From: a virus
Strand: one strand, 5' to 3'
Length of the DNA: 21,039 nt
Virus record (IMG/VR): IMGVR_UViG_3300045988_137034
Span: 1 to 21,039 of that record
Positions 4,801-21,039 of this stretch are shown one piece after another. Position 1 is the first letter of the stretch. Each line of letters opens with the position of its first letter. Below the pieces are notes generated by a model. The model had not been told where the DNA came from and did no database searches. It saw only the letters and a program-made list of their open reading frames with translations. A program made the translations under genes and the position numbers.

Positions 4801-5294
4801 TAAAAATCCATTTCAGTATCAGCAGGTAAAACATTACCTTCCTCATCTGTAATAAAGTATTGTAAATCAGCAAGAGTTCTTAATGATCCATCTTCTTTAT
4901 ATTTAAGTCCATAGAAGAAATCTCCTAATCCTCCATATAAAGTAATATTATAAGTAATAACAGCTTGTTTTATAGATATACTATTTAATTGCATATATCC
5001 AGATTCAACTAAATAGTCATTATTATAGATTCCAAAATCAACTCGTTTTGAAGGATCAAAATATACTCCAGAGAAATTACCTTCTTTTATATGGAGAAAT
5101 CTATCTAACTTATAAATCTCTCCAAAAATCTTATTATTATTTTTGTCTCCTGGAATGCTTATAGTCTTACTGAATGAATTTTTTACTATTGTTGGATTCT
5201 GAAAATCTTCTACAGTATAAGTCATTGGTAATGATATGCCTTCAGAACAATGTACTTCTTTTCCTGCAATAAATAATTTAATATTCTTTCTCAT
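1845..5294 (-). CDS. Very large tail/baseplate-type structural protein (1149 codons) reconstituted from three standard-code ORFs via TGA=Trp
   Basis: Track ORFs 4305..5294, 3351..4235 and 1845..3344 share one frame. The junctions are single TGAs at 4305-4307, 4263-4265 and 3351-3353, with bridging peptides W-VGLKPGGTTTSYN-W-GYTSVDGSEV... and ...LLFDKK-W-YT-MKQEAP.... The first TAA/TAG in frame is TAA at 1845-1847. Size and position in the virion module suggest a tail fiber or baseplate role; the family is not recognised. Alternative model: if TGA 3351 terminates some of the time, there are two products, 3351..5294 and 1845..3344. Confidence 0.6.
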
Positions 5295-8232: not shown

Positions 8233-8874
8233 CTATTCAGATAATTCAGCTTCATTTTTGAGTAAAAGGATTAATCGTCTCGTCTGTATTAAGCTCTTCA
8301 GAAGTTTCCTCCTTTCCAGTTTGTCCTTGGTTTTCCTTAGTCTCTTCTTCATCTCCCTTTCCGAAGAGTGTAGGGTACTCAGCGTTGATACTTGCAATAA
8401 GTTTACAAAAAAAAACATTATGTCTGAAAATATATCTATTGTTAGATGAGTATTTAAGAATTCTGCCTCATCAATAGGGTCATAATCTTCTCCATACTTC
8501 TTTCCATTAGGTAGTAAGAAACAAGCTGCTAGATTAGGCATAAAATCATCATACTGCTTATAAAAATTCTGAAAGTCAATATATTGACTGGCCGTCATCT
8601 TATTAACATTAAAAAAGACTTTATATTCTTTATTTCCAATATTATAAGTAGTTTCTGGAGTTTTTGGCTTATAGGGGGTCTCTATAAATTTAAGATTATT
8701 TATAAACTCTTGTAGCTTGTTTACTTCCATATTAGTTATATCTTCTATAGGTATATCACTAAGTACAGATACCATAGCTAAATTCATATCTAATTCATTT
8801 TCCCAGTCTTTTCGTATTATCTCAAACAGTCTTTTATAATGAGATAAATCCATTTCATTCCAATTCTTTATCAT
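8233..8874 (-). CDS. Hypothetical protein (213 aa) translationally coupled to the large terminase
   Basis: Intact standard ORF ending in TAG. Its ATG (8874..8872) overlaps the terL TAA (8876..8874) as TAATG. Basic helical C-terminus (KKRLRKTKDKLERRKLLKSL). No family recognised. Confidence 0.6.
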   Translation of the reverse strand: MIKNWNEMDLSHYKRLFEIIRKDWENELDMNLAMVSVLSDIPIEDITNMEVNKLQEFINNLKFIETPYKPKTPETTYNIGNKEYKVFFNVNKMTASQYIDFQNFYKQYDDFMPNLAACFLLPNGKKYGEDYDPIDEAEFLNTHLTIDIFSDIMFFFVNLLQVSTLSTLHSSEREMKKRLRKTKDKLERRKLLKSLIQTRRLILLLKNEAELSE

Positions 8875-10121
8875 TATTTAATTGCAATATTATAAGTTCC
8901 TTTATTTGTATTTAAAGCATCATAAGCTAACATTAAAGATATACAAGTATCATCATTAAAGCCAGATGGAGCATTATATGATACATTTCCAGTCTTTGGA
9001 TTATAACTGGCTTCATATAGTCTTAATTCATTTAATAGTTTATCATCCTTTAAAATACCAATCTTTTCGTTTTCTAATGCCGCTTGTAGCTTATTTACAA
9101 TAGCTGCCTTAGACTTATTAGTAGTTAAGAATCTTATAATCCTGATTTTTAGATTCTTCCGAACTAACATATCATAAAACACTGAACCTATTGAGTTTTG
9201 TTCGACTTGAACTATCTTTATAAATCCCTGATACTCAGTAAATATATTTGTCAGTAAATCAACTTGTTCTGTTGGAGTTTTGTCGTTAAAATACTTTATA
9301 AAGACCATCTGCCCATTTTCATTTAAAGCTGTAATACAAGTATAGTCTTTACCAGAACCAGTAGCCCAGTCAACTCCAATATAGAGATTATGATATTCAG
9401 GTTTTTTATCAATTATACAGTTAGCTATATTATTAAATAGGCAACCATCATCATCTGCAAACTCTCCAAGATATTCAGTTCTAAATTTATTTTTGGAGGT
9501 TGTAAGGCGATACATTTCAAGTTTATCCTCACTTAACAGCATAGAAGTATCTTCTAATGCTCAATCAAAGGATTGATAATATTTACTAAAATTACCATCA
9601 AAGCCCTTTTTAAAGCATTCATAAAAGAATCCTTCTCTAAACCTTGGAGTACTAATTATAAGTATCGGAGCATTCCATACATCAGTGGTAGGCTTAATAA
9701 TTTCAAATACTTCATCTTTAAGATAAGCTGCCTCATCAAGTACTAATAATCCACTGACTGAGAATCCTCGTAATGAATCCATTTGTTCTCCAGATCTAAA
9801 TAGTATAGAACTGCCATTATTAAACTCTAATTCTAATAAGGTTTCATTCTTTCTCTTTAATATATCAGAGTCTATAACAGCTTGTACAAGTTCTTTAAAT
9901 ACCTTTCTAGATTGTCCAAGAGTTGGTTCAACTATACAATTAACACTCCCAGGATAATTTATAGCGAATCTCAATAATTCATTTTCTGCCAAGAACGATT
10001 TACCTACCTGTCTCTTTGCTTTAATTGTAAAGATTTTACCAGACCTATATGAGTCATTCATAGCAGTATGTACCTTTAATTGATAGATAAATGGGCTATA
10101 TCCTTTATATATTTTTGTCAT
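8874..10121 (-). CDS. terL: Terminase large subunit, reconstituted across one in-frame TGA (9561-9563)
   Basis: Track ORFs 9561..10157 and 8874..9542 are in frame: ...KYYQSFD-W-ALEDTS-MLLSEDKLEMY.... Walker A AKRQVGKS, Walker B LLVLDEAA, and nuclease-domain acidic motifs IGVDWATGSGKDY and FNDDTCISL. The start is taken at MTKIYKGY (10121, 17-nt overlap with terS); ATG 10157 is the alternative. Confidence 0.85.
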
Positions 10122-10557
10122 TGTTAATTGGATCTCCAAATTTAAACTGGACTTCATTATTCTGAATAGCTACAATAGTCTCAGGTTGATTTAATCCAAA
10201 CATACTATTTATAGTCTTAATAATCTCATTTGCAGCTCTAATATCTCCCTTACTAATAGCAGTATCCAGTAATGATTCCAATCTTGATAATTGTATATGT
10301 CTAAGGTTTTTTATAAGGTTATCATTCTTTTCAGCAATTATCTTATAAGCTTCTCCAATATATCTTGCAGCTGTTGATTGGCTTACATTATATTTACTTT
10401 GAAGTTCTTCACTTACTTTATTCCTTGACCATCCTTTGTTAAATAACCTTGCAGCATAAAGATATTTAGTCTTTACTTCGTCTATTTGTTCCTTTTCTAC
10501 CTCTGCCTTTTTCGGTCTCCCTGTTTTCTTCGGCAGTTCCTGATTCTTTACTTTCAT
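10105..10557 (-). CDS. terS: Terminase small subunit candidate (HTH DNA-binding protein directly upstream of terL)
   Basis: 150 aa. Basic N-terminus (KKTGRPKK), HTH-like WSRNKVSEELQSKYNVSQSTAARYIGEAY, helical oligomerisation-like C-terminal part. Overlaps the terL start. Confidence 0.6.
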   Translation of the reverse strand: MKVKNQELPKKTGRPKKAEVEKEQIDEVKTKYLYAARLFNKGWSRNKVSEELQSKYNVSQSTAARYIGEAYKIIAEKNDNLIKNLRHIQLSRLESLLDTAISKGDIRAANEIIKTINSMFGLNQPETIVAIQNNEVQFKFGDPINNDKNI

Positions 10558-10890: not shown

Positions 10891-11220
10891 TTAATTAATA
10901 AGTTTGTATATAACATCTATCAACTTAGTAGATGCATCTTTTAATAATATCATAATATCTTTAATAATTGGAGTCATAAATGCTAATAATGCAATATATC
11001 CAACCATTAAAATTGAAAATTGACTTGTAATAAGAATATATAGTAATCCAATTCACCAAGTCATACACAAACTGCAATCTAAAGGTTTGAGTCTTCAATC
11101 TTCTTTATATGGTATACCTTTAAATAGCATTTTTCAAATACTATGTTTAAAACTATCTAAAGCTCCAGATAAATCAATTATAAAAACTATTATTGCAGTT
11201 ATTATAAATAATTCTAACAT
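10891..11220 (-). CDS. Small multi-pass membrane protein (109 aa) with a C-x-x-C...WW motif; 3 in-frame TGA
   Basis: From ATG 11220..11218 to TAA 10893..10891, every triplet was checked. TGAs at 11134-11136, 11095-11097 and 11053-11055. Translation: MLELFIITAIIVFIIDLSGALDSFKHSI-W-KMLFKGIPYKED-W-RLKPLDCSLCMTW-W-IGLLYILITSQFSILMVGYIALLAFMTPI.... It resembles the KP-x-x-C-x-x-C-x-x-W membrane family (DUF1360-like, recollection only). Confidence 0.55.
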
Positions 11221-11699
11221 AATCTTCATACATAATTATAACCTGTTTTATATTTGCCATATAAACAAGCTCGAATTGAATAATCACACTTACCTAAAGC
11301 TTCCGCAGCTTCTTTAATAGAATTATACTTTTTAACTAGAGTTCCGTTAAGATCATATTGAGCTACAGGTTTTGAAAGGTAAGAAGAAATCTTTTTATTT
11401 CTAGTTCCATAATTTGTATTATATTTCCTAGTACATCATTCTAGATTTTCAACTCTATTGTTTAACTTATTTTCGTCAATATGGTTTACTTCTGGTAAAT
11501 TATATATATTTGGTATAAATGTTTCAGCTACTAATCTATGTATAGACTTCATTTTAACTTTTCCATTTTTTCATAGTCCTACTGCTAAGTAGTTATTTCT
11601 AATAGTAGGTTTAATAAATTTATTTGTCCTTATACTATAAACTTCTCCGATATTATTTACTTTATAAAGACCTTCATAATTAGCTATATCCTTCCACAT
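11214..11699 (-). CDS. HNH homing endonuclease (161 aa); 3 in-frame TGA
   Basis: MWKDIANYEGLYKVNNIGEVYS (NUMOD4-like N-terminus), IHRLVAETF, EVNHIDENKLNNRVENLE-W-CTRKYN (HNH_3-type motif, with W encoded by TGA at 11436-11438), and a C-terminal HTH-like region. Other TGAs at 11571-11573 and 11226-11228. Ends in TAG at 11214-11216. The start overlaps the upstream gene by 16 nt. Confidence 0.85.
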
Positions 11700-11938
11700 A
11701 TTTTATTTCTAATATTACTTATACACCTTGCTATGGTAGTATGACTAATTCCTAATATTCTTCCAACTTCTCTATAACTGTGATATTCAGCATATAATAT
11801 GATTACTGTCTTATCTGCCTTATTAAGCTCAAGCCATTTTGGATATATACTTAATAATCTGTCATCTGTATTCGTAAACATATCATAGTCTATTTCATAC
11901 TCATTAAGTAAATCATCAATATTAATCTTCCTTTTCAT
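11684..11938 (-). CDS. Sigma-70 region-4-like / LuxR-type HTH transcription regulator (84 aa)
   Basis: ...DKTVIILYAEYHSYREVGRILGISHTTIARCISNIRNKI matches the region-4 HTH pattern. Intact standard ORF ending in TAG. Both ends are overlapped by HNH genes. Confidence 0.55.
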   Translation of the reverse strand: MKRKINIDDLLNEYEIDYDMFTNTDDRLLSIYPKWLELNKADKTVIILYAEYHSYREVGRILGISHTTIARCISNIRNKICGRI

Positions 11939-12437
11939 AATACTTTCATTTAAATCCTTTGGAAGTTAATTGTCTTCCTTTTAAACAAGCAATAATGTTT
12001 GATATAACAAATCCATTTCTCTTTAATTCATTTATTGAAGGTCATACTTTAATAATATTGTTATCTGTATCTAACTGCACAATTCGCTTGGAGCTTTTAT
12101 TATTCTGGCAGTTTTTAACAAAATTATTAATTCTATTGCCGTAAGTAAGATTATAAGACCTTGTACATCATTCTAAGTTTTCTATAACATTATTGCATTT
12201 ATTTTCATCAATATGATTTATTTCACAATAACTGTTAGGATTTGAAAGAAACGCTTCTGCTACTAGTCGATGTATATAAAAATTTTTTCTACCTTGTTTA
12301 TTATATAAACAAACAAAAGAATATCCACTATTGGATTGCATAGGTTTAATAACTCCTCTAACACTTTTAACTCTGCCTAAAGTGCTAATCTGGTAGTTCG
12401 GGTAATTCGTTATATTCTTCCAGATCTCCATCATCAT
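11922..12437 (-). CDS. HNH homing endonuclease (171 aa); 3 in-frame TGA
   Basis: Track ORF 12168..12437 stops at NVIENLE-TGA. The frame continues -W-CTRSYNLTYGNRINNF...IIKV-W-PSINELKRNGF...KGFK-W-KYYEKED-TAA. TGAs at 12168-12170, 12042-12044 and 11946-11948. IHRLVAEAF and EINHIDENKCNN are paralogous to the 11214..11699 copy. Confidence 0.85.
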
Positions 12438-12699
12438 TAATTTTATCTGTTATAAAAATATCATAATATCGTTTATATGCATAATAGTATCTGCTATTCT
12501 TACTGAACCAGTTGTTTTTAAATACTCTTACAATTCAGTATTTTAATTCATTTTTGGCCAATAAACTATTTAATTTGGCATTATCTGTCTCTAGTAAAGC
12601 CAGTAGACAAATTTGAAAACAATCATCATCCATCCCAAATTTAACCTTTAGTTCTAAGCAGAATTCATAATATTTGGTAATAATTTCATTATTCGTCAT
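12385..12699 (-). CDS. Hypothetical protein (104 aa); 1 in-frame TGA
   Basis: From ATG 12699..12697 to TAG 12387..12385, every triplet was checked. TGA at 12535-12537 (…NELKY-W-IVRVFKNNWF…). It fills an otherwise uncoded 250-nt gap. Its 3' end overlaps the HNH start by about 50 nt. Confidence 0.45.
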
Positions 12700-13123
12700 T
12701 TGCTATATAATTACTAAATTCTGTATTTATATCTATCTTAATAGCTTTCTTTAAAGATAACTCTGTTTTTAATGAATATCCATAAGTTCCTCCAAAATCT
12801 GTTGTAGAACACCCATATTTCATAGAGTCTTTTATAAAGGCTGATTTTATATCTTTAAATATATATATACCATCATCGAATATTATTACTAATATAGAAT
12901 TATTTCTGGATAGTAGATCAAATTTTTCTCTATTAATAATAGTTGTTGGATATTTATTAGAATTAAATCTCCTTCTTTTAACTTCTATTATATAATCAAT
13001 TCCATTCCAATTAAATGTTCCATCATATCTGGAATAATTATCTTTATATCATTCTATTTCTATATTATATTTATCTTTAAATAGATTCTTTATAAAGACT
13101 AAGCTTCTTATATCTGTTTTCAT
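12689..13123 (-). CDS. PD-(D/E)xK nuclease-like protein (144 aa); 1 in-frame TGA
   Basis: From ATG 13123..13121 (TAATG overlap with the upstream gene) to TAA 12691..12689, every triplet was checked. TGA at 13049-13051. SRYDG...IDYIIEVKRR fits a D...(D/E)-x-K restriction-endonuclease-fold motif. This is a motif-level call only. Confidence 0.4.
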
Positions 13124-13362
13124 TATTTTATATTATTAATTTTAAGGGTTAAATCACAATATTCTTCATATAAATTAGATACTTCTTCACTTGCAGGATT
13201 AAACCACATTACTGAATCTAATTTATGCTTTAACTCTGCTCTTTCTAATCTTAATTCAAATGTTTTAGTTTGGTACTCTCCATAAGCATTATATACTCTA
13301 ATACCAGCTATTCCCATTAAAATAATCGTTGCAATAATTGCATATTTAAATATAGTTTTCAT
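13123..13362 (-). CDS. Small N-terminally membrane-anchored protein (79 aa)
   Basis: Intact ORF; TM helix YAIIATIILMGIAGI followed by a helical region. It is the first gene after the 13363-13460 intergenic region. Confidence 0.5.
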   Translation of the reverse strand: MKTIFKYAIIATIILMGIAGIRVYNAYGEYQTKTFELRLERAELKHKLDSVMWFNPASEEVSNLYEEYCDLTLKINNIK

Positions 13363-13396
13363 AATTTATAAATTTTAATTGTTAATATTATATCTT

Positions 13397-13413
13397 TTAT
13401 TGTAATACAATAA
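13397..13413. promoter_or_regulatory. Perfect 17-bp palindrome, operator-like site in the intergenic region
   Basis: TTATTGTA-A-TACAATAA: 8-bp arms around a single central base. A 1-nt loop is not a plausible RNA hairpin, so a dimeric-protein binding site is more likely. It lies 35 nt upstream of ATG 13362. Confidence 0.35.
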
Positions 13414-13460
13414 ATAATGAAAAGTTTTTAATTCTCAAAATATTTAAGCAATTATTTTTA

Positions 13461-14207
13461 TTAAAATTCAAAAATATCTTTATTGTCGTATTCAATATCT
13501 TGTTTTCTGTCTAATCCAAATAAACCAGCAAGTATGTCATTATAGATATTATTAGCTTTTGGACTTAAATAAAGCTTATTCTTTACAAAATAAACGGTTT
13601 GCTTATATAATTTATTATCAGAGGGAGTAGAAAGCACATTCTTAATAGTTCTAATATTCTGCTCATTTAAATGCACTACTTCATTCTTAATAAACTCTTC
13701 ATATCTTATCTGATAACCATCTTCTACTTTATCTAAGTAAAATCCATACTCTTTTAGCTTATTAAGCTTATTATTTAATAGATTATATGTAATATCTAAT
13801 TCTTTAGCTATATCCTTCTTATTTAACTTAATTTTTAAAGTATCATCAAATGCCAAACTTCTAATTCTTAAGGCAAATCCCAATAAATTTAGATCCTTAT
13901 CAATATTATTAATTACAAAATCTAATTTAACCATAAAAAATGTATTTAGTATTGATTTATAGGTATTAGTCTTTATAACATTACCATTATCTTTAATTAT
14001 AACCTTAGTAGAGCAGTCTAATAACTCTGCTTTATAAAGATGACTATTCATCTTTTTAATATAATCTACAGAGCATTTTAAATACTTTGCAAAGTAATCT
14101 CTTGTATATACTTTATTTTGAAGCTGTGTATAAGATTGTAAAGCCATATAATATGCTTCTTTGTCATTCAAATCCTTTACTCGTTTATCAATTTTTAAAT
14201 AAATCAT
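13461..14207 (-). CDS. Winged-HTH DNA-binding protein, replication-initiator-like candidate (248 aa); no TGA and no Trp at all
   Basis: Intact ORF ending in TAA. HTH-like KKDIAKELDITYNLLNNKLNKLKEYGF. It sits directly beside the iteron-like repeat cluster at 14254-14326. The function is inferred from context only. Confidence 0.4.
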   Translation of the reverse strand: MIYLKIDKRVKDLNDKEAYYMALQSYTQLQNKVYTRDYFAKYLKCSVDYIKKMNSHLYKAELLDCSTKVIIKDNGNVIKTNTYKSILNTFFMVKLDFVINNIDKDLNLLGFALRIRSLAFDDTLKIKLNKKDIAKELDITYNLLNNKLNKLKEYGFYLDKVEDGYQIRYEEFIKNEVVHLNEQNIRTIKNVLSTPSDNKLYKQTVYFVKNKLYLSPKANNIYNDILAGLFGLDRKQDIEYDNKDIFEF

Positions 14208-14253
14208 AGTGCTAAATTTTTTACTGGAACGAAAGCTCGAAGAGCTGAGTCCT

Positions 14254-14287
14254 ATAGTATTACTTTTATTATAGTATTACTTTTATT
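14254..14287. repeat. Perfect tandem direct repeat, 2 x 17 nt (ATAGTATTACTTTTATT)
   Basis: Copies at 14254-14270 and 14271-14287 are identical, in the divergent intergenic region. Confidence 0.9.
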
Positions 14288-14290
14288 AAT

Positions 14291-14326
14291 GGGTACTGAA
14301 TCGACAGGTCGGTCGGGTACTGAATC
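14291..14326. repeat. Two identical 12-nt direct repeats (GGGTACTGAATC) separated by a 12-nt GC-rich spacer
   Basis: Copies at 14291-14302 and 14315-14326. The spacer gacaggtcggtc, together with its flanking bases, can form a small CGAC/GTCG hairpin. This is locally the most GC-rich stretch of an otherwise AT-rich region. Confidence 0.9.
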
Positions 14327-14344
14327 AATATATGTCTAAAAATA

Positions 14345-14369
14345 GGGTTTGGGTAGCTAATCCAAACCC
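14345..14369. terminator. Hairpin GGGTTTGG-(9 nt)-CCAAACCC with A-tract/T-tract flanks; terminator-like element in a divergent intergenic region
   Basis: Arms at 14345-14352 and 14362-14369, preceded by AAAAATA and followed by CTTTT. No gene on either strand obviously runs into it, so its role is unclear (terminator of a short RNA, or part of an origin). Confidence 0.4.
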
Positions 14370-14543
14370 CTTTTAGCACTAATAAAAGTAGTAATTATTT
14401 CTAATTACAAGGCAAAGATAACATTATTTTTTTTAAAATCAAAATTTTTACAATAAAAAAATAACTTTTTATTAAAAATATTTTATTAAAAATAATATTA
14501 CAATTCTTGAATATATTATATATTAATAAAAAAGAATAAAATT

Positions 14544-15329
14544 ATGAATTGGAAATCAACAAACATTAAAGGATATTCAGTTAGTGATGAAGGTCAAATA
14601 AAGAACGAACTAACAGGAAAAGTATTATCTCAGTTTAAGAATAATATGGGGTATTATTTAGTAAGCATACAAGATAAAAAGTATCTTGTACATAGATTAG
14701 TAGCAGAGGCGTTTTTAAATAAACCTAATAAATGTAATATAGTAGAACATAAAGATGATGATCCCACAAATAATTGTGTAGATAATCTTATGTGAAGTAC
14801 TCAGAAATTGAATTTAAATAGGCAAGGAAGGCTTGAAAAGTTAAAAAGGCATTATCAGTCCAATGAATGAAAAGAAGCTAGAAAAAAGGCTTTAGAAACA
14901 ATGAAAGCAAATGGATTTAAAAAGACTAAATCAGATAAGCAAAAGGCTAAAGAAGCGGCCAGATTAGATAGAATATCTAAAGAAAGAGAGAATATAAGAC
15001 CTACTCTCGACCAACAATATGATGCGTTTATTAATCCTTTAATTGATTTACTTAAATCTGGATATAGTTTAAAGAGAGCTGCACAATATTTTGGAATAAA
15101 TGATACTACTGGCATTACTTATTTTTCTAAAAGATATTATGAAGAAACAGGAATTAAACTTATTACATATAAGATTAAAAAATCGTCGTTTTCAAATGCA
15201 GAAAAATTAATGAATAAAATTAAAGAATTATATAATCAAGGTTTAACTGTAGAGGAAATAAGTGAAGAAGTAAATAGATCAATTAATATTGTTAATAAGT
15301 ATATAAAACTATGGAAGATTCATATTTAA
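14544..15329 (+). CDS. HNH homing endonuclease with extended C-terminal HTH region (261 aa); 2 in-frame TGA
   Basis: Track ORFs 14544..14795 and 14901..15329 are in frame (offset 357 nt). The junction reads ...NNCVDNLM-W-STQKLNLNRQGRLEKLKRHYQSNE-W-KEARKKALETMKANG..., with TGAs at 14793-14795 and 14868-14870. LVHRLVAEAF and VEHKDDDPTNNCVDNLMW form the HNH_3-type core. HTH-like SLKRAAQYFGIN and LTVEEISEEVNRSINIV. Ends in TAA at 15327-15329. Confidence 0.8.
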
Positions 15330-15493
15330 ATAGAATTGCGGATATTAAAGAAACAATTAAACAAACTGAAGAGTATATTAAAGAATTGGATAAATGAATA
15401 CTCAAATGTAAAGAAACTACTAAAAGATTTGGTGATATTATAGATAAAGTATTAAAAGATAAAGATTATATGTCTATTTCTAAATTTGATTAA
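15311..15493 (+). CDS. Small hypothetical protein (60 aa); 1 in-frame TGA
   Basis: ATG 15311 to TAA 15491-15493; TGA at 15395-15397 (…KELDK-W-ILKCKE…). Helical and charged. Overlaps the HNH 3' end by 19 nt. Confidence 0.35.
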
Positions 15494-15495
15494 TT

Positions 15496-15636
15496 ATGAA
15501 TGATTATTTATTTAAAAAACTTGAAGAACTAGAATATAGAATAGTTCAATTAGAAAACCAGAATAAAGGTTTAGTCTGGGAAGAAGTAGAAGAAATGCCA
15601 AAACCAGAAATTTCTAATGCAACTTATATTGACTAA
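15496..15636 (+). CDS. Small hypothetical protein (46 aa)
   Basis: ATG 15496 lies 2 nt after the previous stop; TAA at 15634-15636. MNDYLFKKLEELEYRIVQLENQNKGLVWEEVEEMPKPE..., coiled-coil-like. Confidence 0.3.
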   Translation: MNDYLFKKLEELEYRIVQLENQNKGLVWEEVEEMPKPEISNATYID

Positions 15637-15637
15637 T

Positions 15638-15781
15638 ATGAAGTATCAAACATATAAATTATGCTTAAATGGAATAAATTACGTTTATGTAATTCCTGAA
15701 AATAGTAAATTCTTAGTAGACTTACAAACAGGAGATCTAATACCTAAAGAAGATGATAAGTTATTTGAAATAATGGAATAA
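15638..15781 (+). CDS. Small hypothetical protein (47 aa)
   Basis: ATG 15638 lies 1 nt after the previous stop; TAA at 15779-15781, followed immediately by the terminator hairpin. Confidence 0.3.
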   Translation: MKYQTYKLCLNGINYVYVIPENSKFLVDLQTGDLIPKEDDKLFEIME

Positions 15782-15785
15782 ATGA

Positions 15786-15813
15786 AAATAGGAGGGTATA
15801 TGCCCTCCTATTT
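15786..15813. terminator. Bidirectional intrinsic terminator between convergent transcription units
   Basis: AAATAGGAGGG-tatatg-CCCTCCTATTT: perfect 11-bp arms at 15786-15796 and 15803-15813. It lies 4 nt after the plus-strand TAA (15781) and 4 nt after the minus-strand TAA (15818). Confidence 0.75.
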
Positions 15814-15817
15814 CTGT

Positions 15818-16408
15818 TTAAGCGTATTTTCATTTAAATCCTTTTACTTTATAGCCTTCTCTAATTGCTTTAGAAATAGAATTTTTATGAACTCCAACAT
15901 CTAAAGAAGCACTAACAGCACAGTCATATTCTTTAATAAGAATATCGTCTTTATACGCACCTACTTTTTTAGCTCTAGGATTATTGCCAAAAGAATTATT
16001 TAAATAACTCAAATCTTTACCTTTATGACTATTACTCATCTTTTTTCGAGTTTCTTCTGATGGATGTCTTCCAATACATTTGGCTCTAATCTTATCTTTT
16101 CTTTCCTGAGTGAATGCAATACCTAAGGTGCCGTCACCTCCATCTGTAGCATTATATCCATATTTGGGATCTCTAGTATTATATTTATGAATAAGAATTT
16201 TTTCTAAAGTCTTGGCACAAGGTTCTGGCAAATTATCTTTAATTATAATATGTTCAAAATTATCCCATCCATATTTTGTTATAGCGTTTCAAAACGGCTG
16301 TTTTCTATAACCAAGACCATTTGCTCATCGTATTTCTGGCTTCTTACAAGTAATGCCAATATATTTCTTACCATTAATCTTGTTTAAATGAATATATATA
16401 CTATACAT
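15818..16408 (-). CDS. GIY-YIG homing endonuclease (196 aa); 3 in-frame TGA
   Basis: MYSIYIHLNKINGKKYIGITCKKPEIR-W-ANGLGYRKQPF-W-NAITKYGWDNFEHIIIKDNLPEPCAK...KVKGFK-W-KYA-TAA. TGAs at 16325-16327, 16289-16291 and 15830-15832. GIY (IYIH) and YIG motifs, the R-W and KYGWDNF motifs, and NUMOD-like HxSEETRKKMS are present. The track ORF 15830..16231 is only the middle piece. The ATG at 16408 overlaps the endolysin stop. Confidence 0.85.
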
Positions 16409-16850
16409 ACAAATTACCTTTTTTTCTTCGTTGTAGTCCTTTAATACTATATAAAGCAATATGCACTCACTGAGATGTACGACTTTTTTCTATAAAGCAT
16501 TCGTCAAAATTATAATTCTCTATTTCATCTGTTATTCATACTTGGAATATCTTCATTTGACCGTTACTTGGAATTATATCTGCTGCATATCCTGTTAGAT
16601 GGGCAGATGTCAAAGATCCTCCTACAGCTTTATTAAGCTCATTACATCTATAACCTGAATTCACACTTATTGCTGGATTCCCCAACCGATTAACATCACA
16701 ATACTCTGCCCAATCACTTCTTAATGGATCTAAAAGTTTCTCGACTAACTCTATAAGGTGTTCAGTAATCTCTTTATTTGGAGTATTATCTATCTTCTTA
16801 ATAGAAGCTGTATCAGATCTTGTTAATTCACTAATAGTAAAATATTTCAT
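16401..16850 (-). CDS. Endolysin, zinc peptidase M15 family (149 aa); 2 in-frame TGA
   Basis: SGYRCNELNKAVGGSLTSAHLTGYAADI carries the H-x6-D zinc motif. The track ORF stops at ...MKIFQV-TGA (16536-16538). The frame continues -W-ITDEIENYNFDECFIEKSRTSQ-W-VHIALYSIKG...-TAG (16401-16403), with the second TGA at 16467-16469. W-V-H supplies the expected C-terminal His ligand region of this family. Confidence 0.8.
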
Positions 16851-17011
16851 TATTTAATAATATCTTTAAGCATAACATAACGGTAAAATAAATGACATCC
16901 TGCACCAAGTGCTATGAGTACTAATGTAATCCAAAATGGAATTACTTTTACCATTAAACATACTAAGATTATAATTACTATTGCTATTAAATATTTCATC
17001 CAATATTTCAT
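16850..17011 (-). CDS. Holin candidate (53 aa, two TM helices)
   Basis: MKYWMKYLIAIVIIILVCLMVKVIPFWITLVLIALGAGCHLFYRYVMLKDIIK. Its TAA overlaps the endolysin ATG as TAATG. No TGA. It is below the ORF-track size cutoff. Confidence 0.6.
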   Translation of the reverse strand: MKYWMKYLIAIVIIILVCLMVKVIPFWITLVLIALGAGCHLFYRYVMLKDIIK

Positions 17012-17014
17012 AAC

Positions 17015-17668
17015 TTATTTATTTAAAATTATACTTACTTTAATTCCTGCATCTCTTAGTTTTACTCAAGTATCAACTGGCATCTCATTATCACAATAAG
17101 ATAATCCTAAAACTCCAATATCCCTATCTTCTGACTTTAAATAGAATATTGCAATCTTATTAACATCATTAGATTTAAATGTATAATACATTCTCCTATC
17201 TAATTCCTTTATATCTTCAACATCTCCCAATCATCCTCCTTTTTTAGATGTTTCCAATATAAATAAATAATCAGATAATAGGAAATCTTTATAGTGTTTA
17301 GAAACTGAAGCAACTCCAGGTTCTGTTTCTTCACTATTCATAATCCCATAAGTAAATGGAAGTCCTCCTAATCCTGAAGTGCCATTATGATACTCAATAA
17401 CTCAAGCTCTATCTGCATTCGTATCATTTAAAAGATCTTTAAGGATATATCTAACCTTAAGATCTGCTTCTTGTCTTATTAATTGATTAGTATTATGGAC
17501 CGTTTTTATATAGTTTGTAACTTTATCATATATTATTCCTGGATTAGTACTTATAATTATTACATAAGAAATAAATATAAATCCAAATCCACCTTTAATT
17601 ATTTTTCACAGTCCATATTTATCTACTCATTCTAATACCTTTCCAAACCAGTTTAATTTATTTTCCAT
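17015..17668 (-). CDS. N-terminally membrane-anchored protein (217 aa) heading the lysis cassette; 5 in-frame TGA, invisible in the standard-code track
   Basis: From ATG 17668..17666 (TAATG overlap with the upstream GIY-YIG stop) to TAA 17017..17015, every triplet was checked. TGAs at 17627-17629, 17606-17608, 17402-17404, 17231-17233 and 17066-17068. MENKLNWFGKVLE-W-VDKYGL-W-KIIKGGFGFIFISYVIIISTNPG.... Function unknown. Confidence 0.5.
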
Positions 17669-18252
17669 TACATATCATACTTAAAGGTATATCCTTTAGT
17701 TTGTTTTTGTCTGCCACTTAAAACTGAAGATATTAAAGAAGAAGTTATGTTTAACTCTCTTGCTGCTGATCTTATACTTTTATAAGATTTTATAAATCTT
17801 CCATCTAAAGTGTATTGACTAATAGCTTTAGTTCCATAGTTTTGATTTTTCTTGCGTATTAATTCCTTAGTTTCTTCTGAATGATGCTTCCCATAAAATG
17901 GATTTTTATTTCCTATTCTAGTTTTAGCAAATTCAGAAATAATAACTTTAGTTTCATTAGAAACTATCGGATGATTACTTGTGTCAGTTCTATTATAACC
18001 AAATCTTAAATCTGTAGTATTATAATAGCTAAAGAAGTATTTTTCAAGATATTTCATTTCCGATTCACTATTTACATAATAAATAGTGTGTTTAATATTG
18101 TTTCAACCGTACTTTTTAATTGGTCTGTAAACAAATTGATCTTTATATCCTTCTCCACCTCTTCATCTACTATTTACTGACTGAGTGGTTAATCCAACAT
18201 ATCTTTTACCATTTGGAAAAGTATGAATATAAACTACATACTGTCTTGACAT
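17668..18252 (-). CDS. GIY-YIG homing endonuclease (194 aa); 2 in-frame TGA
   Basis: MSRQYVVYIHTFPNGKRYVGLTTQSVNSR-W-RGGEGYKDQFVYRPIKKYG-W-NNIKHTIYYVNSESEMKYLEKYFF.... TGAs at 18163-18165 and 18103-18105. NUMOD-like GKHHSEETKELIRKK and a C-terminal HTH. The ATG at 18252 overlaps the upstream gene by 19 nt. Confidence 0.85.
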
Positions 18253-18659
18253 AAGCCTAATGTGTTGTCAACTTGGAAATCAACTCTAACAAATACTCCG
18301 CAGGTAATATCTTTGAACTTTTGATAGAATGGAGTATAAATTAAAGGATAAGCTATTTCAACTTCTGGATATAGGTTATTAAATCGATTAATTATATTAG
18401 TTAATGCTAATATTCCAGCTGATTGCTCTTCTAGCTGATTATTATCAGTCTCATCCCATCTTGCTATAAAATAGAGATTTAATGAGTAAGTAATAGTATC
18501 TTCATCCATATTAAATGTATTTGGCGTTATATAAAATACATTATATTCAATAGTTGGAATACTATTAAGTTCATATATATCTTTACTTCCTACAAAATTA
18601 ATATTAGGTTCTTCAAGAGCACAGGCTTTTAAATTGTTTATTAATTCAAAATACGTCAT
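18234..18659 (-). CDS. Hypothetical virion-module protein (141 aa), possibly head-closure or tail-completion
   Basis: Intact ORF ending in TAG. The position between connector-like gene and lysis cassette is the only functional hint. Confidence 0.5.
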   Translation of the reverse strand: MTYFELINNLKACALEEPNINFVGSKDIYELNSIPTIEYNVFYITPNTFNMDEDTITYSLNLYFIARWDETDNNQLEEQSAGILALTNIINRFNNLYPEVEIAYPLIYTPFYQKFKDITCGVFVRVDFQVDNTLGLCQDSM

Positions 18660-18660
18660 A

Positions 18661-19152
18661 TTAAATGTATTTAAAAGTTAATTTATTCTTATATTTTCTA
18701 CCTGTTTTTAAACAGTAACGTATACTTTTAGAGTCTATATTTAACCTACGAGCACATTCATTAATAGATGGATATTCTATATCATTACATAATATTTTAT
18801 GAGATTGCTTATAAATTGAATACCTAGTATTATATGAAATAGTACACCATTCTAGATTACATACTCGATCGTCATTCTTTACTTCATTTTTATGATTAAC
18901 AACTGGATAGTTAAATGGATTCTCTATAAAAGCATATGCTACTAATCTACATACTCTATAATAGTAGGGTTTACTATCTTTCATTAAAGTAACCCACTTA
19001 TATCCATCTTTATCAATGTTAGGTTTTAAAATACGCTCATTTACTGGGCAAATACACCCATTCTTACTAAGTCTAGCTCTTGCAACTGATTTAACTTCTC
19101 CAGAATCACTCACTTGGTAATAACCTTCAAAGTCTTTAATATCTTTCCACAT
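18661..19152 (-). CDS. HNH homing endonuclease (163 aa), the only endonuclease here with no TGA
   Basis: MWKDIKDFEGYYQVSDSGEVKS (NUMOD4-like), VCRLVAYAF, VVNHKNEVKNDDRVCNLEWCTISYN (all three Trp encoded by TGG), and a C-terminal HTH INECARRLNIDSKSIRYCL. Confidence 0.85.
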   Translation of the reverse strand: MWKDIKDFEGYYQVSDSGEVKSVARARLSKNGCICPVNERILKPNIDKDGYKWVTLMKDSKPYYYRVCRLVAYAFIENPFNYPVVNHKNEVKNDDRVCNLEWCTISYNTRYSIYKQSHKILCNDIEYPSINECARRLNIDSKSIRYCLKTGRKYKNKLTFKYI

Positions 19153-19154
19153 AA

Positions 19155-19817
19155 TTACTTTTTCTTATTCTTATTTGAACTTGGAAAATCATATCTAGAT
19201 CTTAGAGAATTATTATATAGTCCCTTCGAGCGTATACCTCCAAGCCAGATACCACAACTACTTGAACTGTATAAATTAGGATACATATCTTTAAGAGGTT
19301 TATATGAATATAATTCAGGAAAATCATTATAATATGTAATAACCCAATCTTGTAGTCTTGCTTTAAAGAAATCTGCTTTATCTCTATAATATTTCTTAAT
19401 AAGATTAACTTGACTTGCATCTGCAGCTATATCTTTCTCATCATCAGTCCTCATAACTCCAAAATTACTAAGTTTAAAAGAGATAGGAATAGTAATTTCA
19501 CTTAATACTTGATAAAGTAAATAAGGCTGAATATAGTAATCTAATAATTCTTTATATCTATGATTTTCTGGATCATCTATAGATGTTGGATCATAAATAG
19601 GAGGTTCTATTGGATGAACTGGTTTATTTGGATCTTTCCAATCAATTACTAATTTCTGAATCTTCTCTAAGAGCTTAGTTCCAATTAATGACTGAAGCTC
19701 AATATCTTGTGCAAGTTTGATTGCAGACTGAAGATATTTACCAGAAACATTATTATCTAAATTAGATTCTGATTTTATATAATCTTCAGATATTAATAGT
19801 ACATTTCTATATTCCAT
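19155..19817 (-). CDS. Head-tail connector/adaptor-like protein (220 aa)
   Basis: The N-terminal pattern LISEDYIKSESNLDNNVSGKYLQSAIKLAQDIELQSLIG resembles gp6-like connector N-termini, and the gene lies downstream of the portal. Motif-level call only. Confidence 0.4.
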   Translation of the reverse strand: MEYRNVLLISEDYIKSESNLDNNVSGKYLQSAIKLAQDIELQSLIGTKLLEKIQKLVIDWKDPNKPVHPIEPPIYDPTSIDDPENHRYKELLDYYIQPYLLYQVLSEITIPISFKLSNFGVMRTDDEKDIAADASQVNLIKKYYRDKADFFKARLQDWVITYYNDFPELYSYKPLKDMYPNLYSSSSCGIWLGGIRSKGLYNNSLRSRYDFPSSNKNKKK

Positions 19818-20460
19818 AATAATATTTATAATTTTTGCAGGGTTTATTTTTTCTACAAGATCTAGATATACTAGAAGAATCTACATTATTCTTCTCTCCA
19901 GCTTCCTTAGCTGATTTATACTCACAAATAAAATTACCATCTAAATCATACTTATATACTTTTTTGCACTGACGTTCTGAAATTAGTTGTTTTTCTTTAT
20001 CTGAGAGTTTCATACCTTTATTTCAAGGAGTTTTGCCTAATCTTGCCTCCCTCATTTTACGCTTGCTTTCATCTGAATGCTGTTTACCATAAAATGAGTT
20101 ATTTTCTCCTGATCTTATAATTCTAAGACTATCTTTATAATCTTGTGAAAAAGAATATCCACAAGTACCGTCTCCTCCATCAGTTAAATTATACCCATAT
20201 TTTGGATTTCTAGTATTATACTTATAAATCAGAATCTTTTCTAAAGTCTTAGCACAAGCTTCTGGAAGATTATCTCTAATTATAATATGCTCAAAATTAT
20301 CTCAACCATATTTTTTAATTGCTCTGCTAAAATAAAGATTATTCTTGTAACCTTGACCTTTAGTTCCCCATCTATTATTTAAAGTAAGTGATGTTATTCC
20401 AAAATATAATTTATTATCAGCTATATTCTTATGGCAGTACACTGTATAATTATTCAACAT
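19807..20460 (-). CDS. GIY-YIG homing endonuclease (217 aa); 2 in-frame TGA
   Basis: MLNNYTVYCHKNIADNKLYFGITSLTLNNRWGTKGQGYKNNLYFSRAIKKYG-W-DNFEHIIIRDNLPEACAKTLEKILIYKYNTRNPKYGYNLTDGGDGT...GKTP-W-NKGMKLSDKEK.... TGAs at 20302-20304 and 20023-20025. The track shows only the last 68 aa. The ATG at 20460 overlaps the portal stop by 11 nt. Confidence 0.85.
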
Positions 20461-21039
20461 TTTCTGCATTTTCTGACATTCCTTTTGGAGTTAAACTAAA
20501 TGGTTCAATAGTAATACTATTCTTAATGCCGAAGATTTTATCAAATGAGTCACAAATTTCTGATTGTATTGGGCGTACAAAAGTACGATTATATAGCTTA
20601 AATGCTTCATTAAACTCATTTTCATTAAATCCTGAGCTATAGTTTAAACCGAACAACGAAGGATTAGCTCGGAAGGCACAGAATATTTGATCTCTTGTTC
20701 TTTCAGATAATGATTGATATTTTTCATCAAAATCATCAGAATCTAACCTTTCAATTGTGGTCTTATTTGCCTCATCTGCATTATATGAAATCAATATTCT
20801 GCCAGCATTCTGATAACCAGAGAACTTCTCATTAATATTCCTCTCAATCTCCTCTCTAATTTCATCTGTAGGCTCTCCATTATTAAAGTTAATAATAAGA
20901 TTGCCCATAAATCCATTATTGATATTGTTTAAATGGAACTCATTAATATTTTTCTCAGTTTCACAAGATAGAATAGCAGCTCCGTAAACAGGAATAGGAT
21001 ATACTCCTCTTGTTATATAACCTTTATTATAAAATATAC
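20450..21039 (-). CDS. Portal protein, C-terminal part (N-terminus beyond the window end)
   Basis: The frame is open from 21039. ...GVYPIPVYGAAILSCETEKNINEFHLNNINNGFMGNLIINFNNGEPTDEIREEIERNINEKFSGYQNAGRILISY... and ...FNENEFNEAFKLYNRTFVRPIQ... match the usual portal core/clip-region pattern as I remember it. Ends in TAA at 20450-20452. Confidence 0.65.
   Translation of the reverse strand, partial: IFYNKGYITRGVYPIPVYGAAILSCETEKNINEFHLNNINNGFMGNLIINFNNGEPTDEIREEIERNINEKFSGYQNAGRILISYNADEANKTTIERLDSDDFDEKYQSLSERTRDQIFCAFRANPSLFGLNYSSGFNENEFNEAFKLYNRTFVRPIQSEICDSFDKIFGIKNSITIEPFSLTPKGMSENAENVE

Follow-up and report, generated by a model that had tools for sequence, protein, structure and literature searches.

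In the Agate phages, the gene families that prefer TGA to TGG as tryptophan codon are a homing endonuclease and a transmembrane protein of the lysis cassette, a preference that has been read as regulatory (Borges et al., bioRxiv 10.1101/2021.08.26.457843; published as 'Widespread stop-codon recoding in bacteriophages may regulate translation of lytic genes'). According to the same study, only 35% of code-4 phages show a suppressor tRNA, and TGA is present in 26-71% of the genes of phages with standard-code hosts, compared with ~90% where the code of a recoded host is shared.

The stretch of DNA analysed here (21,039 nucleotides, referred to as the window) covers roughly two thirds of the ~31-kb genome of a code-4 tailed phage from an animal-gut clade; at least 40 relatives of this phage have been sequenced, pig gut being among their sources. 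It resembles the Agate phages in being a code-4 phage of animal or human gut, in having a homing endonuclease and a transmembrane protein beside the lysis genes among the families with the most TGA over TGG, in the avoidance of TGA by replication genes, in the existence of standard-code relatives and in a suppressor tRNA that often escapes detection. TGA-preferring endonuclease and lysis-membrane genes are a pattern already published, for the Agate phages. Those phages, however, have genomes of ~127 kb and another terminase lineage, and the endonuclease they carry is encoded in a group I intron that interrupts an early gene, whereas the window holds seven free-standing HNH and GIY-YIG genes in 21 kb. 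Structural genes are described as recoded in Agate, whereas capsid, scaffold and portal genes are among the most TGA-poor here. The TGA share of the endonuclease genes here equals the neutral A/G expectation, which argues that selection on them is relaxed and not that a preference for TGA has evolved.

The domain sets found here (GIY-YIG with NUMOD3/NUMOD1; NUMOD4 with HNH_3 and NUMOD1) are the same as in the free-standing homing endonucleases that T-even and SPO1-like phages carry (the I-TevI/Seg GIY-YIG and I-HmuI/Mob HNH families), and the genes likewise form gene-sized intergenic insertions between conserved genes, are polymorphic for presence and absence, and compete as rivals for one site. 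Unlike those, they are known from sequence alone, stand at higher density (1 per 3 kb in the window) and contain in-frame TGA. To judge from their published descriptions, with which the clade was compared, the Garnet, Amethyst and Topaz phage clades (genomes of 22-34 kb, with Prevotella as host of some; Borges et al.) share with it a size of ~30 kb, the animal gut, structural and lysis genes in one block, and mixed codes in the wider lineage. The representatives described are TAG-recoded, unlike this clade. In synthetic biology, recoded organisms are discussed as being shielded from gene transfer and viruses by their genetic code, and here too a gene that contains reassigned stops in frame cannot function under the other code. 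In contrast to such designs, the barrier in this clade is asymmetric, as TGG-only genes are portable, and it is confounded with clade-restricted homing. Phages that avoid TGA so as to work in hosts of either code have been described (Liu et al., mBio 2023, PMC10746230).

The genetic code and the endonuclease genes

TGA stands for tryptophan and not for glycine in this phage. Conserved tryptophan columns mix both codons between endonucleases, the NLE[W] column being TGA in HNH1-3 and TGG in HNH4, and the KYG[W] column TGG in GIY1 and TGA in GIY2 and GIY3. Code 4 is used by all 70+ clade loci (L001-L034 were found with the large terminase as anchor), and more distant relatives (TerL 47%, portal 62% identity) are also recoded, so code 4 is old in this phage lineage. 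No tRNA was detected by ARAGORN in 76 loci that together tile the genome, or by Rfam on one whole clade genome.

All seven genes are endonucleases by Pfam, with either HNH_3 and NUMOD4, in part with NUMOD1, or GIY-YIG/NUMOD3, in part with NUMOD1; four HNH and three GIY-YIG genes, they are free-standing homing endonuclease genes (HEGs). HNH1 (11214..11699, minus strand, 161 aa; NUMOD4, HNH_3 and NUMOD1) has TGA at three of four tryptophan codons (11571-11573, 11436-11438 and 11226-11228), and its o84/m112 site is filled, empty or filled by another gene among relatives. HNH2 (11922..12437, minus strand, 171 aa; NUMOD4 and HNH_3; TGA 3/4) occupies the o104/o84 site in only 4 of 53 loci. The opposite, plus strand carries HNH3 (14544..15329, 261 aa; TGA 2/4), an HNH endonuclease with a C-terminal HTH that was found solely in the window, L024 and L168. 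Together with o248 (13461..14207, minus strand), a 248-aa HTH-like protein with no tryptophan codon, it stands where most clade genomes have a TGA-free ATPase gene of 572 aa.

GIY1 (15818..16408, minus strand; GIY-YIG and NUMOD3; TGA 3/4) encodes 196 aa from its ATG, or 213 aa from an alternative TTG start at 16459, and has a 210-nt block in common with GIY3 at 78% identity. In GIY2 (17668..18252, minus strand, 194 aa; NUMOD3, NUMOD1 and an I-HmuI NUMOD-like domain; TGA 2/2), the GIY-YIG core is recognisable solely through alignment with GIY1 and GIY3; the gene is present at the s141/m217 site in 8 of 58 loci. GIY3 (19807..20469, minus strand, 220 aa; GIY-YIG, two NUMOD3 and NUMOD1; TGA 2/3) lies at the portal/s220 site, which in relatives contains GIY3, another GIY gene or nothing. 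HNH4 (18661..19152, minus strand, 163 aa; HNH/NUMOD4) has TGG at all three tryptophan codons and so would be translatable under either code, whereas other clade genomes carry, at this site, copies of 80% and 72% identity with two TGA and one TGG. As the earlier note had stated, the other six genes need TGA as tryptophan; under the standard code their products stop after 27-89 residues.

TGA share across gene classes

The earlier note had counted tryptophan codons by hand, and exact counts agree with it in every gene: TGA makes up 15 of 24 in the seven endonuclease genes, 5/6 in the membrane protein gene m217, and, for the big virion genes, 7/43 over the three of them (1/7, 3/20 and 3/16). The class difference it reported between endonucleases and big genes is real (Fisher p=2.7e-4). 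GC3 does not account for the skew, since NNA/NNG usage is alike in the two classes (0.815 vs 0.832). When only the window is considered, there is no difference between the endonucleases and its remaining small genes (15/24 vs 16/33, p=0.42).

Clade-wide, with one tryptophan column per allele group as the test unit, the endonuclease share is the highest of all classes (105/152=0.69). It exceeds that of every class at p<0.003 save the lysis/membrane genes (0.55, p=0.065), although p-values here overstate independence because the clade sequences are related and recombining. The early ATPase (0/14) and head genes (0.14) are lowest, followed by other virion (0.34), big virion (0.39), TerL/small (0.43) and fibre genes (0.50). 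The A-share of the HEGs at Lys/Glu/Gln codons, taken as the neutral A/G expectation, is 0.75, near their TGA share. Portal, s220, protease and p174 genes are low in TGA throughout, and the early ATPase has 0-1 TGA over three allele groups. The capsid gene lacks TGA (0/101) and favours G-ending codons in general, its A share for Lys/Glu/Gln being 0.32-0.33 compared with about 0.7 elsewhere, but a distant recoded relative has TGA at 1/3 in its capsid gene, so the avoidance is not absolute. Over families, TGA share and general A/G codon bias correlate weakly (rho 0.36, p=0.09).

Turnover between TGA and TGG proceeds at the ordinary synonymous rate, as 24.9% of tryptophan columns are polymorphic compared with 21.3% of Lys/Glu/Gln columns for A/G. 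Derived states are balanced in HEG, lysis and fibre genes (6 TGA : 5 TGG), whereas in core genes rare derived TGA exceeds TGG (28:11, p=0.009), an excess also expected from ongoing accumulation. The TGA share may be very different between allele groups of a single gene, as in the virion gene B1149 (3/20 vs 11/16 TGA, p=0.0017), s220 (0.00 vs 0.19) and m217 (0.38/0.70/1.00). Such differences, which gene-level selection does not predict and which count against it, point to lineage history or recombination with low-TGA donors.

Mobility of the endonucleases and origin of the skew

The clade is densely populated by HEGs, which are present, absent or replaced at 10 intergenic sites, the flanking genes abutting at empty sites, and the phage population is strongly mosaic. 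Endonuclease copies at >=60% identity (62-100%) were found in no genomes but those of this recoded clade, where their insertion sites are polymorphic, and none near-identical was found in the standard-code contigs searched. The relatives that come next (39-54% identity) lie in standard-code phages and without exception are TGG-only. Several of these carriers are remotely related to this phage family and have the same gene order, and the same HEG family reaches 1.1 per 10 kb in standard-code kin vs 1.5 per 10 kb in the clade. Since the nearest outsiders are TGG-only, even in kin of similar HEG density, recoding of the endonuclease lineages probably took place in situ, along with that of the genome.

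We favour, as somewhat on the probable side, a mutation-selection balance in which core genes are under selection against TGA and HEGs lie at the neutral expectation. The combination of synonymous-rate flips, an old code 4, HEGs at expectation and core genes below it is better fitted by such selection than by different recoding histories or a code quarantine. HEGs would pass between co-infecting clade members at fixed intergenic sites, and AT-biased mutation would turn TGG into TGA as fast as is normal for synonymous changes. Being dispensable and needed in small amounts only, HEGs could drift to about 0.7 TGA, matching their Lys/Glu/Gln A/G bias, a value that lysis/membrane and fibre genes would approach. 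TGG would be kept by early or bulk genes (replication ATPase, capsid, scaffold and portal), and less so by the big virion genes. Reading TGA may be costly or conditional here, a suppressor tRNA not being encoded and the host code probably being standard. HEGs and the lysis membrane protein might then be made only when or where TGA is read through, which the phage possibly exploits, in line with the read-through proposal of Borges et al. (10.1101/2021.08.26.457843).

That the HEGs form a pool confined to TGA-recoded phages with the code as firewall, as the earlier note had proposed, and have been in code 4 longer than the core genes, is unlikely. The truncation of six of the seven products in the standard code agrees with it, as does the confinement of every copy at least 62% identical to recoded genomes. 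The pool, however, is a single phage clade, in which homologous flanks and co-infection give equal confinement without any effect of the code, which leaves containment unproven, and the TGG-only outsiders argue for recoding in place. A barrier could in any case be only one-way, as genes like HNH4 pass in either code (compare PMC10746230). History has left some trace in single alleles such as those of B1149, but different recoding histories for HEGs and core genes are not needed for the class skew, because turnover at the synonymous rate wipes out history fast. Moreover, core genes define the recoded lineage and have spent equal time in it unless repeatedly re-imported. Such import, in which low-TGA core alleles (B1149 and B726 of the window, and the capsid module) were recently recombined from standard-code or weakly recoded relatives and lacked time to gain TGA, HEGs and other genes having been longer in code 4, seems similarly improbable. 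The B1149 allele types (15% vs 67% TGA, both fully AT-rich), the mosaic population, the standard-code relatives of the family and the surplus of rare derived TGA among core genes would suit it, and pairs of standard-code and TGA-recoded phages at >90% ANI are known (Borges et al., 10.1101/2021.08.26.457843). Yet no standard-code member at TerL >=82% identity was found, the closest being 35-40% identical. The GC3 of B1149 in the window (0.15) equals the low level of its own genome, so the gene did not arrive recently from the higher-GC relatives seen, and the low TGA of early ATPase, portal, s220, protease and p174 looks like a matter of function, not of chance.

A host that itself uses code 4, its tRNA-Trp set reading TGG better, would reduce the skew to the codon-usage bias that is ordinary in highly expressed genes, leaving it without meaning for regulation or as a barrier; we hold this to be quite unlikely. 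It is consistent with the failure to recognise suppressor tRNA, release factor or TrpRS genes in the ~31-kb genome, with TGA in 17 of 27 window genes, terminase and virion genes included, and with the general codon bias of the capsid gene. The known code-4 bacteria of guts are the wall-less Mollicutes. The M15 cell-wall peptidase speaks against these and implies a host with peptidoglycan, relatives of the same architecture are standard-code and have BACON domains typical of Bacteroidota phages, and the early ATPase is TGA-free. The peptidase and these relatives suggest a walled host, probably standard-code and probably of the Bacteroidota. No prophage or relative of this phage was found among 185,579 species genomes, and 63% of genes with TGA is within the range for standard-code hosts and not the ~90% of recoded-host phages (Borges et al.).

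Other genes and elements of the window

The 217-aa product of m217 (17015..17668, minus strand; TGA 0.57 clade-wide) has a single N-terminal hydrophobic helix at ~23-41 by hydropathy, matches only phrog_30125, of unknown function, and is likely a lysis-cassette membrane protein. The adjoining endolysin-type gene (16401..16850, minus strand, 149 aa; Peptidase_M15_3 by Pfam; TGA 2/3) weakly matches the muramoyl-pentapeptide carboxypeptidase PDB 1lbu. A tape-measure-like coiled-coil gene (1..1842, minus strand; TGA 1/7) continues beyond the window, in which 614 aa are seen (770-922 aa in relatives); a confident Pfam family was not found for it.

B1149 (1845..5294, minus strand), a 1149-aa tail/baseplate-like virion gene, has TGA at 3/20 in the window and 10-11/16 in other alleles, and over its N-terminal third shares 39.5% identity with a giant protein with BACON domains from the standard-code relative L158. 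B726 (5297..7477, minus strand), a virion gene of 726 aa, has 3/16 in the window and 3 to 7 TGA among alleles >=90% identical in amino acids. The large terminase (8874..10157, minus strand, 427 aa; Terminase_6N/6C by Pfam) has 1/3. A terminator-like hairpin with a 12-bp stem (15785..15814, minus strand) lies between the converging o60 (plus strand) and GIY1 (minus strand).

Genetic code and tryptophan codons of the window

Read with the bacterial standard code, the window (G+C content about 28%) contains many short open reading frames. With TGA as a sense codon it contains long, densely packed genes, nearly all on the minus strand; on that strand code 4 fuses the large virion genes B1149 (1149 aa, 1845-5294) and B726 (726 aa, 5297-7477) as well as the 427-aa large terminase (8874-10157). 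Standard-code gene calling in contig L171 cuts m217, a 217-aa lysis-cassette-like membrane protein, into three pieces, and annotation pipelines that call genes by the standard code will shred such genes. The window is probably a complete metagenome contig whose ends interrupt the tape-measure-like and portal genes. Among the window paralogs, the conserved Trp of the NLE[W] motif is encoded by TGA in the HNH endonuclease genes HNH1, HNH2, and HNH3 and by TGG in HNH4, the Trp of KYG[W] by TGG in the GIY-YIG gene GIY1 and by TGA in GIY2 and GIY3, and TGA is also aligned with conserved Trp at the paralogous RW columns. Across the clade, the recoded relatives of the window phage, the NLEW column holds TGA 36 times and TGG 29 times, and standard-code relatives have TGG. 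The paralog Trp columns rule out code 25 (TGA as Gly), and the alignments show that TGA is read as Trp, not Gly, in the window phage.

Exact per-gene counting reproduced every number of the hand counts in the earlier note. TGA supplies 3/4, 3/4, 2/4, 3/4, 2/2, 2/3, and 0/3 of the Trp codons in the seven endonuclease genes (15/24 in total) and five of the six in m217, compared with 1/7, 3/20, and 3/16 (7/43) in the three large virion genes. The difference between the endonucleases and the three large genes is significant (Fisher p = 2.7e-4), and a general A-ending or GC3 bias is ruled out as its cause, the ratio NNA/(NNA+NNG) being 0.815 for the endonucleases and 0.832 for the large genes. Within the window alone, the endonucleases did not differ from the other small genes (15/24 versus 16/33, p = 0.42). 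The claim that six of the seven endonucleases depend on code 4 also held, as their standard-code products would end after 27-89 residues; HNH4 is the only one not truncated. A ceiling on the number of TGA codons per gene, as the idea of a limited suppression yield would have it, was ruled out by the 9-11 TGA codons in other B1149 alleles and in fibre genes.

The first Trp codon, at codon 2-7, is TGG in HNH1 (11694-11696), HNH2 (12420-12422), HNH3 (14550-14552), HNH4 (19147-19149), and m217 (17648-17650), and later Trp codons are mostly TGA. In the endonuclease family of the clade, Trp within codons 1-10 is encoded by 2 TGA and 21 TGG codons, compared with 220 and 101 at later positions (Fisher p = 1e-8). 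This may reflect an overlap with the end of the upstream gene, which is found for HNH1 and HNH2 but not for HNH4, or else avoidance of start-stop contexts of the form ATG-TGA.

Endonuclease mobility and nearest relatives

Pfam searches identified four HNH_3/NUMOD4(/NUMOD1) genes and three GIY-YIG/NUMOD3(/NUMOD1) genes in the window. HNH1, HNH2, and HNH3 exceed the HNH_3 cut-off, and HNH4 falls below it (20.2 versus 24.8 bits) yet has a strong NUMOD4 match. GIY1 exceeds the GIY-YIG cut-off, GIY3 is slightly below it (19.2 versus 22.6), and GIY2 was assigned solely via its alignment with GIY1 and GIY3. The modular DNA-binding domains matched were NUMOD4, NUMOD1, NUMOD3, and an I-HmuI NUMOD-like domain. 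Ten intergenic sites in the clade are either filled, empty, or occupied by another endonuclease at 36-57% identity, the flanking genes of empty sites lie -10 to +46 nt apart, and few clade genomes carry either HNH3 or HNH4. In their domains and patchy site occupancy the window endonucleases behave as free-standing homing endonuclease genes (HEGs), I-HmuI-like for the HNH type and I-TevI/Seg-like for the GIY-YIG type, with site-specific cleavage of the HEG-less allele and gene conversion as the predicted activity. GIY1 and GIY3 share a block of 210 nt with 78% DNA identity (16085-16294 and 20122-20331), encoding a 55-aa stretch that begins KYGWDNFEH; the proteins are 48% identical overall, and the block suggests recombination between endonuclease paralogs. 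Further nuclease-type genes absent from the window, namely T5orf172/MUG113 genes and a 112-aa PF01844 HNH protein, occur elsewhere in the clade (L016 5955-6548; L170 3720-4205; L062 14565-14903). Their TGA shares, given here and below as TGA/(TGA+TGG), are also high, at 0.60 for T5orf172/MUG113 and 0.79 for the PF01844 HNH family.

Profile searches over 5.8 billion proteins yielded huge families for both the HNH and the GIY-YIG types. Each window endonuclease has a run of copies at 62-100% identity followed by a gap down to 54% or less. All looked-up copies above the gap (P0029, P0134, P0242, P0244) are located in recoded clade genomes and cannot be translated with the standard code, whereas copies below it can: P0108 and P0028 (52-54% identical to HNH1) and P0151, P0217, and P0212 (39-46% identical to the GIY genes). 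A cluster member from ENA, P0315, has exactly the length of HNH3. P0247, 48% identical to HNH4, is a further variant at the same site in pig-gut clade genomes. A recent arrival of HNH4 from a genome with the standard code was not supported, since its clade relatives at 72-80% identity carry TGA and the 48% "outsider" is this clade variant.

The phages that carry P0108 and P0028 are distantly related to the family of the window phage; they have terminases 36-40% identical to that of the window phage, the same gene order, and giant structural proteins with BACON domains, and contain no in-frame TGA at all. A further scan identified seven more standard-code relatives, and in the matched genes of all nine, none of the 241 Trp codons is TGA. 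The density of genes of the same HNH family is 1.1 per 10 kb in these nine, compared with 1.5 in the recoded clade, and L034 and L074, which are further recoded relatives, carry none. Thus, endonuclease load is not visibly raised by recoding, and the phage family very likely harboured these endonucleases before its code changed, so that they were recoded in place. Code calls were based on direct in-frame TGA counts in tblastn (code 4) matches; a crude ORF-coverage code caller was dropped as insensitive, because it labelled 33 of the 76 clade loci as "standard". In an IMG/VR sample, 92 HNH copies at 36-52% identity contained 280 TGG and 13 TGA, 10 of the latter in two clade contigs. This HNH-alignment scan is biased against TGA-bearing copies, as one search pattern contains Trp and confirmation was by standard-code tblastn, and it was used solely for the TGG-only state of the 36-52% relatives in standard-code phages.

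The earlier note had proposed that the endonucleases circulate within a pool of TGA-recoded phages, so that the genetic code would contain them. The dependence on code 4 and the circulation only among recoded members stand, but the pool amounts to a single clade, as close copies occur in the clade only and outsiders at 54% identity or less all use the standard code. The proposal is partly supported by the nearest homologs: copies at 62-100% identity all come from recoded clade genomes, whereas the next relatives outside the clade are standard-code. Clade-restricted homing by itself explains the confinement. Containment by a genetic code is an attractive hypothesis, akin to engineered genetic firewalls. 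A barrier is possible in one direction only: phages that avoid TGA are functional in both standard-code and recoded hosts (PMC10746230), so any code barrier would be asymmetric. A one-way barrier predicts that the clade acts as an "HEG sink", which was not supported by the densities of 1.5 versus 1.1 per 10 kb and the two recoded relatives without any copy. An extended version seems unlikely: TGA-Trp would throttle or time the production of the endonucleases and of the lysis membrane protein, with a factor other than a phage tRNA allowing a standard-code host to read TGA, and the code would be a one-way valve through which HEGs enter the clade from standard-code relatives and cannot leave after a few TGG-to-TGA drifts.

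The TGA gradient across the clade and its causes

TGA shares were calculated by gene or class after duplicates had been removed and the clade genomes pooled. The lowest values were those of the capsid-like protein (0/101), the scaffold (0/12), p174 (1/69), and a 572-aa opposite-strand ATPase-like gene that is not in the window (1/110). Shares of 0.13-0.18 were found for protease, portal (0.14), s220, s141, and o213, followed by B726 (0.32), B1149 (0.41), the tape-measure-like gene (0.43), terminase (0.47), fibres (0.52), m217 and m112 (0.57), and the endonucleases (0.64). In a stricter test, with one Trp column per allele group (at least 85% identity) as the unit, the endonucleases remained at the top with 105/152 (0.69), compared with 0.00-0.55 in the other classes, and exceeded each class (p<0.003) except the lysis/membrane genes (0.55, p = 0.065). 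The share of A-ending Lys, Glu, and Gln codons in the endonucleases is 0.75, so their 0.69 is close to what mutation bias alone would give, and all other gene classes fall below the neutral mutational expectation. At Lys/Glu/Gln codons the capsid gene generally prefers the G-ending forms (A-share 0.32-0.33), in line with what a very highly expressed gene would show.

The gradient leads to the question whether it reflects selection or, as the earlier note suggested, different recoding histories of accessory and core genes. TGA and TGG replace each other quickly: 24.9% of the Trp columns within allele groups carry both codons, compared with 21.3% of Lys/Glu/Gln columns that vary between A and G, and nearly identical B726 alleles contain 3 to 7 TGA among 16 Trp codons. 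Code 4 is also old in the lineage, as shown by the recoding of all clade loci (share 0.25-0.66) and of relatives with only 47% terminase or 62% portal identity. Neutral sites would thus long since be at equilibrium, and the lasting low TGA content of core genes needs selection or repeated re-import. Derived (minority) states in endonuclease, lysis, and fibre genes are 6 TGA to 5 TGG, but in core genes are skewed to rare TGA (28:11, p = 0.009); this excess fits new TGA codons being kept rare, although ongoing accumulation would look similar. Graded selection against TGA, in which the endonucleases form the neutral end, is therefore more likely than recoding histories that differ by gene class.

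A purely selective account is in turn opposed by differences between alleles of the same gene. B1149 contains 3 TGA among 20 Trp codons in the window (1845-5294) and 11 among 16 in the divergent alleles of L005, L006, L012, and L022 (p = 0.0017), a fourfold difference between equally AT-rich alleles of a gene of about 1100 aa. Allele history, or donor lineages that differ in their tolerance of TGA, are candidate causes. Allele groups differ likewise for s220 (0.00 versus 0.19) and m217 (0.38, 0.70, and 1.00), and the capsid gene of L074 has TGA at one of three Trp codons. A lineage component therefore exists, and it separates alleles rather than gene classes.

TGA decoding, comparison with Agate phages, and clade genomes

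ARAGORN searches of the window and of 76 loci that tile the genome (L001-L076) gave no tRNA, and an Rfam search at E<=1 detected no tRNA, tmRNA, or other family in one whole genome (L031, L041, and L151 combined). No prophage was found by a terminase-alignment scan of 185,579 GTDB species genomes. The M15 peptidase implies a walled host, and the BACON-bearing standard-code relatives point to the phylum Bacteroidota. In a study of stop-codon recoding that included the Agate phages, Borges et al. (bioRxiv 10.1101/2021.08.26.457843) reported recoded stops in 26-71% of genes in recoded phages of standard-code hosts and in about 90% where the code of a recoded host is shared. TGA is present in 17 of the 27 window genes (63%), which lies inside the former range and below the latter value; with the M15 endolysin and the BACON-bearing relatives, this would hint indirectly at a standard-code host. 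The same authors detected a TGA suppressor tRNA in only 35% of code-4 phages. Genomes of about 31 kb with no recognisable suppressor tRNA, although 63% of the window genes contain TGA, sharpen the decoding problem.

Borges et al. named only three TGA-preferring families in Agate phages, a group I intron homing endonuclease, a tail protein, and a lysis-cassette transmembrane protein, and proposed that in-frame stops hold these proteins back until the code switch; they also showed that recoded stops are avoided by replication and integrase genes and that there are close standard-code relatives. The observation in the earlier note is thus a new instance of a published pattern; what is new is the different, much smaller phage lineage. 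As in Agate, the endonuclease family uses more TGA than other families, and m217 is TGA-rich (5/6 in the window, 0.57 in the clade). Unlike in Agate, the endonucleases are free-standing and very dense rather than intron-borne, and their share equals the neutral expectation. For structural versus replication genes the comparison is mixed: the putative replication ATPase is TGA-poor (1/110), as the Agate pattern would have it, but head genes are TGA-poor too (capsid 0/101, scaffold 0/12, p174 1/69, portal 0.14). The clade adds an independent second case of a phage lineage whose most TGA-rich genes encode homing endonucleases and a membrane protein associated with lysis. The published TGA "preference" is reframed: the endonucleases sit where neutral mutation would place them, and TGA is avoided by the core genes, which implies a real cost of reading TGA. 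At least 40 mosaic clade genomes make the question measurable, and this well-sampled mosaic population and the missing suppressor tRNA are the chief assets of the system.

Cultured phages gave no DNA match and at most about 29% terminase identity. IMG/VR contains 33 contigs, mostly of 29-32 kb, with terminases 82-99% identical, and extra members were recovered by a portal-anchored scan and from Logan and ENA assemblies, including the pig-gut metagenomes of PRJEB11755. The conserved gene order is protease, scaffold, capsid-like 301-aa protein, p174, fibres, portal, s220 (DUF6712), s141, m217, and M15 endolysin, then a short opposite-strand module, small genes, terminase, o213, s162, B726, B1149, and the tape-measure-like gene. 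A clade-like genome (L021 and L069) also lies within a 148,631-bp IMG/VR contig, 3300045988_175865, in which large, very TGA-rich collagen-repeat fibre proteins (10/15, 9/14) are encoded upstream of portal; the contig represents either a larger relative or a chimeric assembly. It gave no clue to the host, as the extra DNA fetched still held TGA-rich phage-like fibre genes and no host DNA.

At 13461-15493 the window has a 248-aa HTH-like gene without Trp and HNH3, where most clade genomes have the 572-aa opposite-strand gene (L169 8262-9983; L072 15109-16827). The latter encodes a Walker-A-like motif (GKVGCGGTS) and a DEYH motif, matches no Pfam or PHROG family, and its exchange with the window genes looks like a swap of a replication or early module. 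A promoter scan gave fewer matches than shuffled sequence and was uninformative. At 15785-15814, where the opposite-strand genes HNH3 and o60 converge on GIY1, there is a hairpin (12-bp stem) ahead of a run of T; it is likely a bidirectional terminator.
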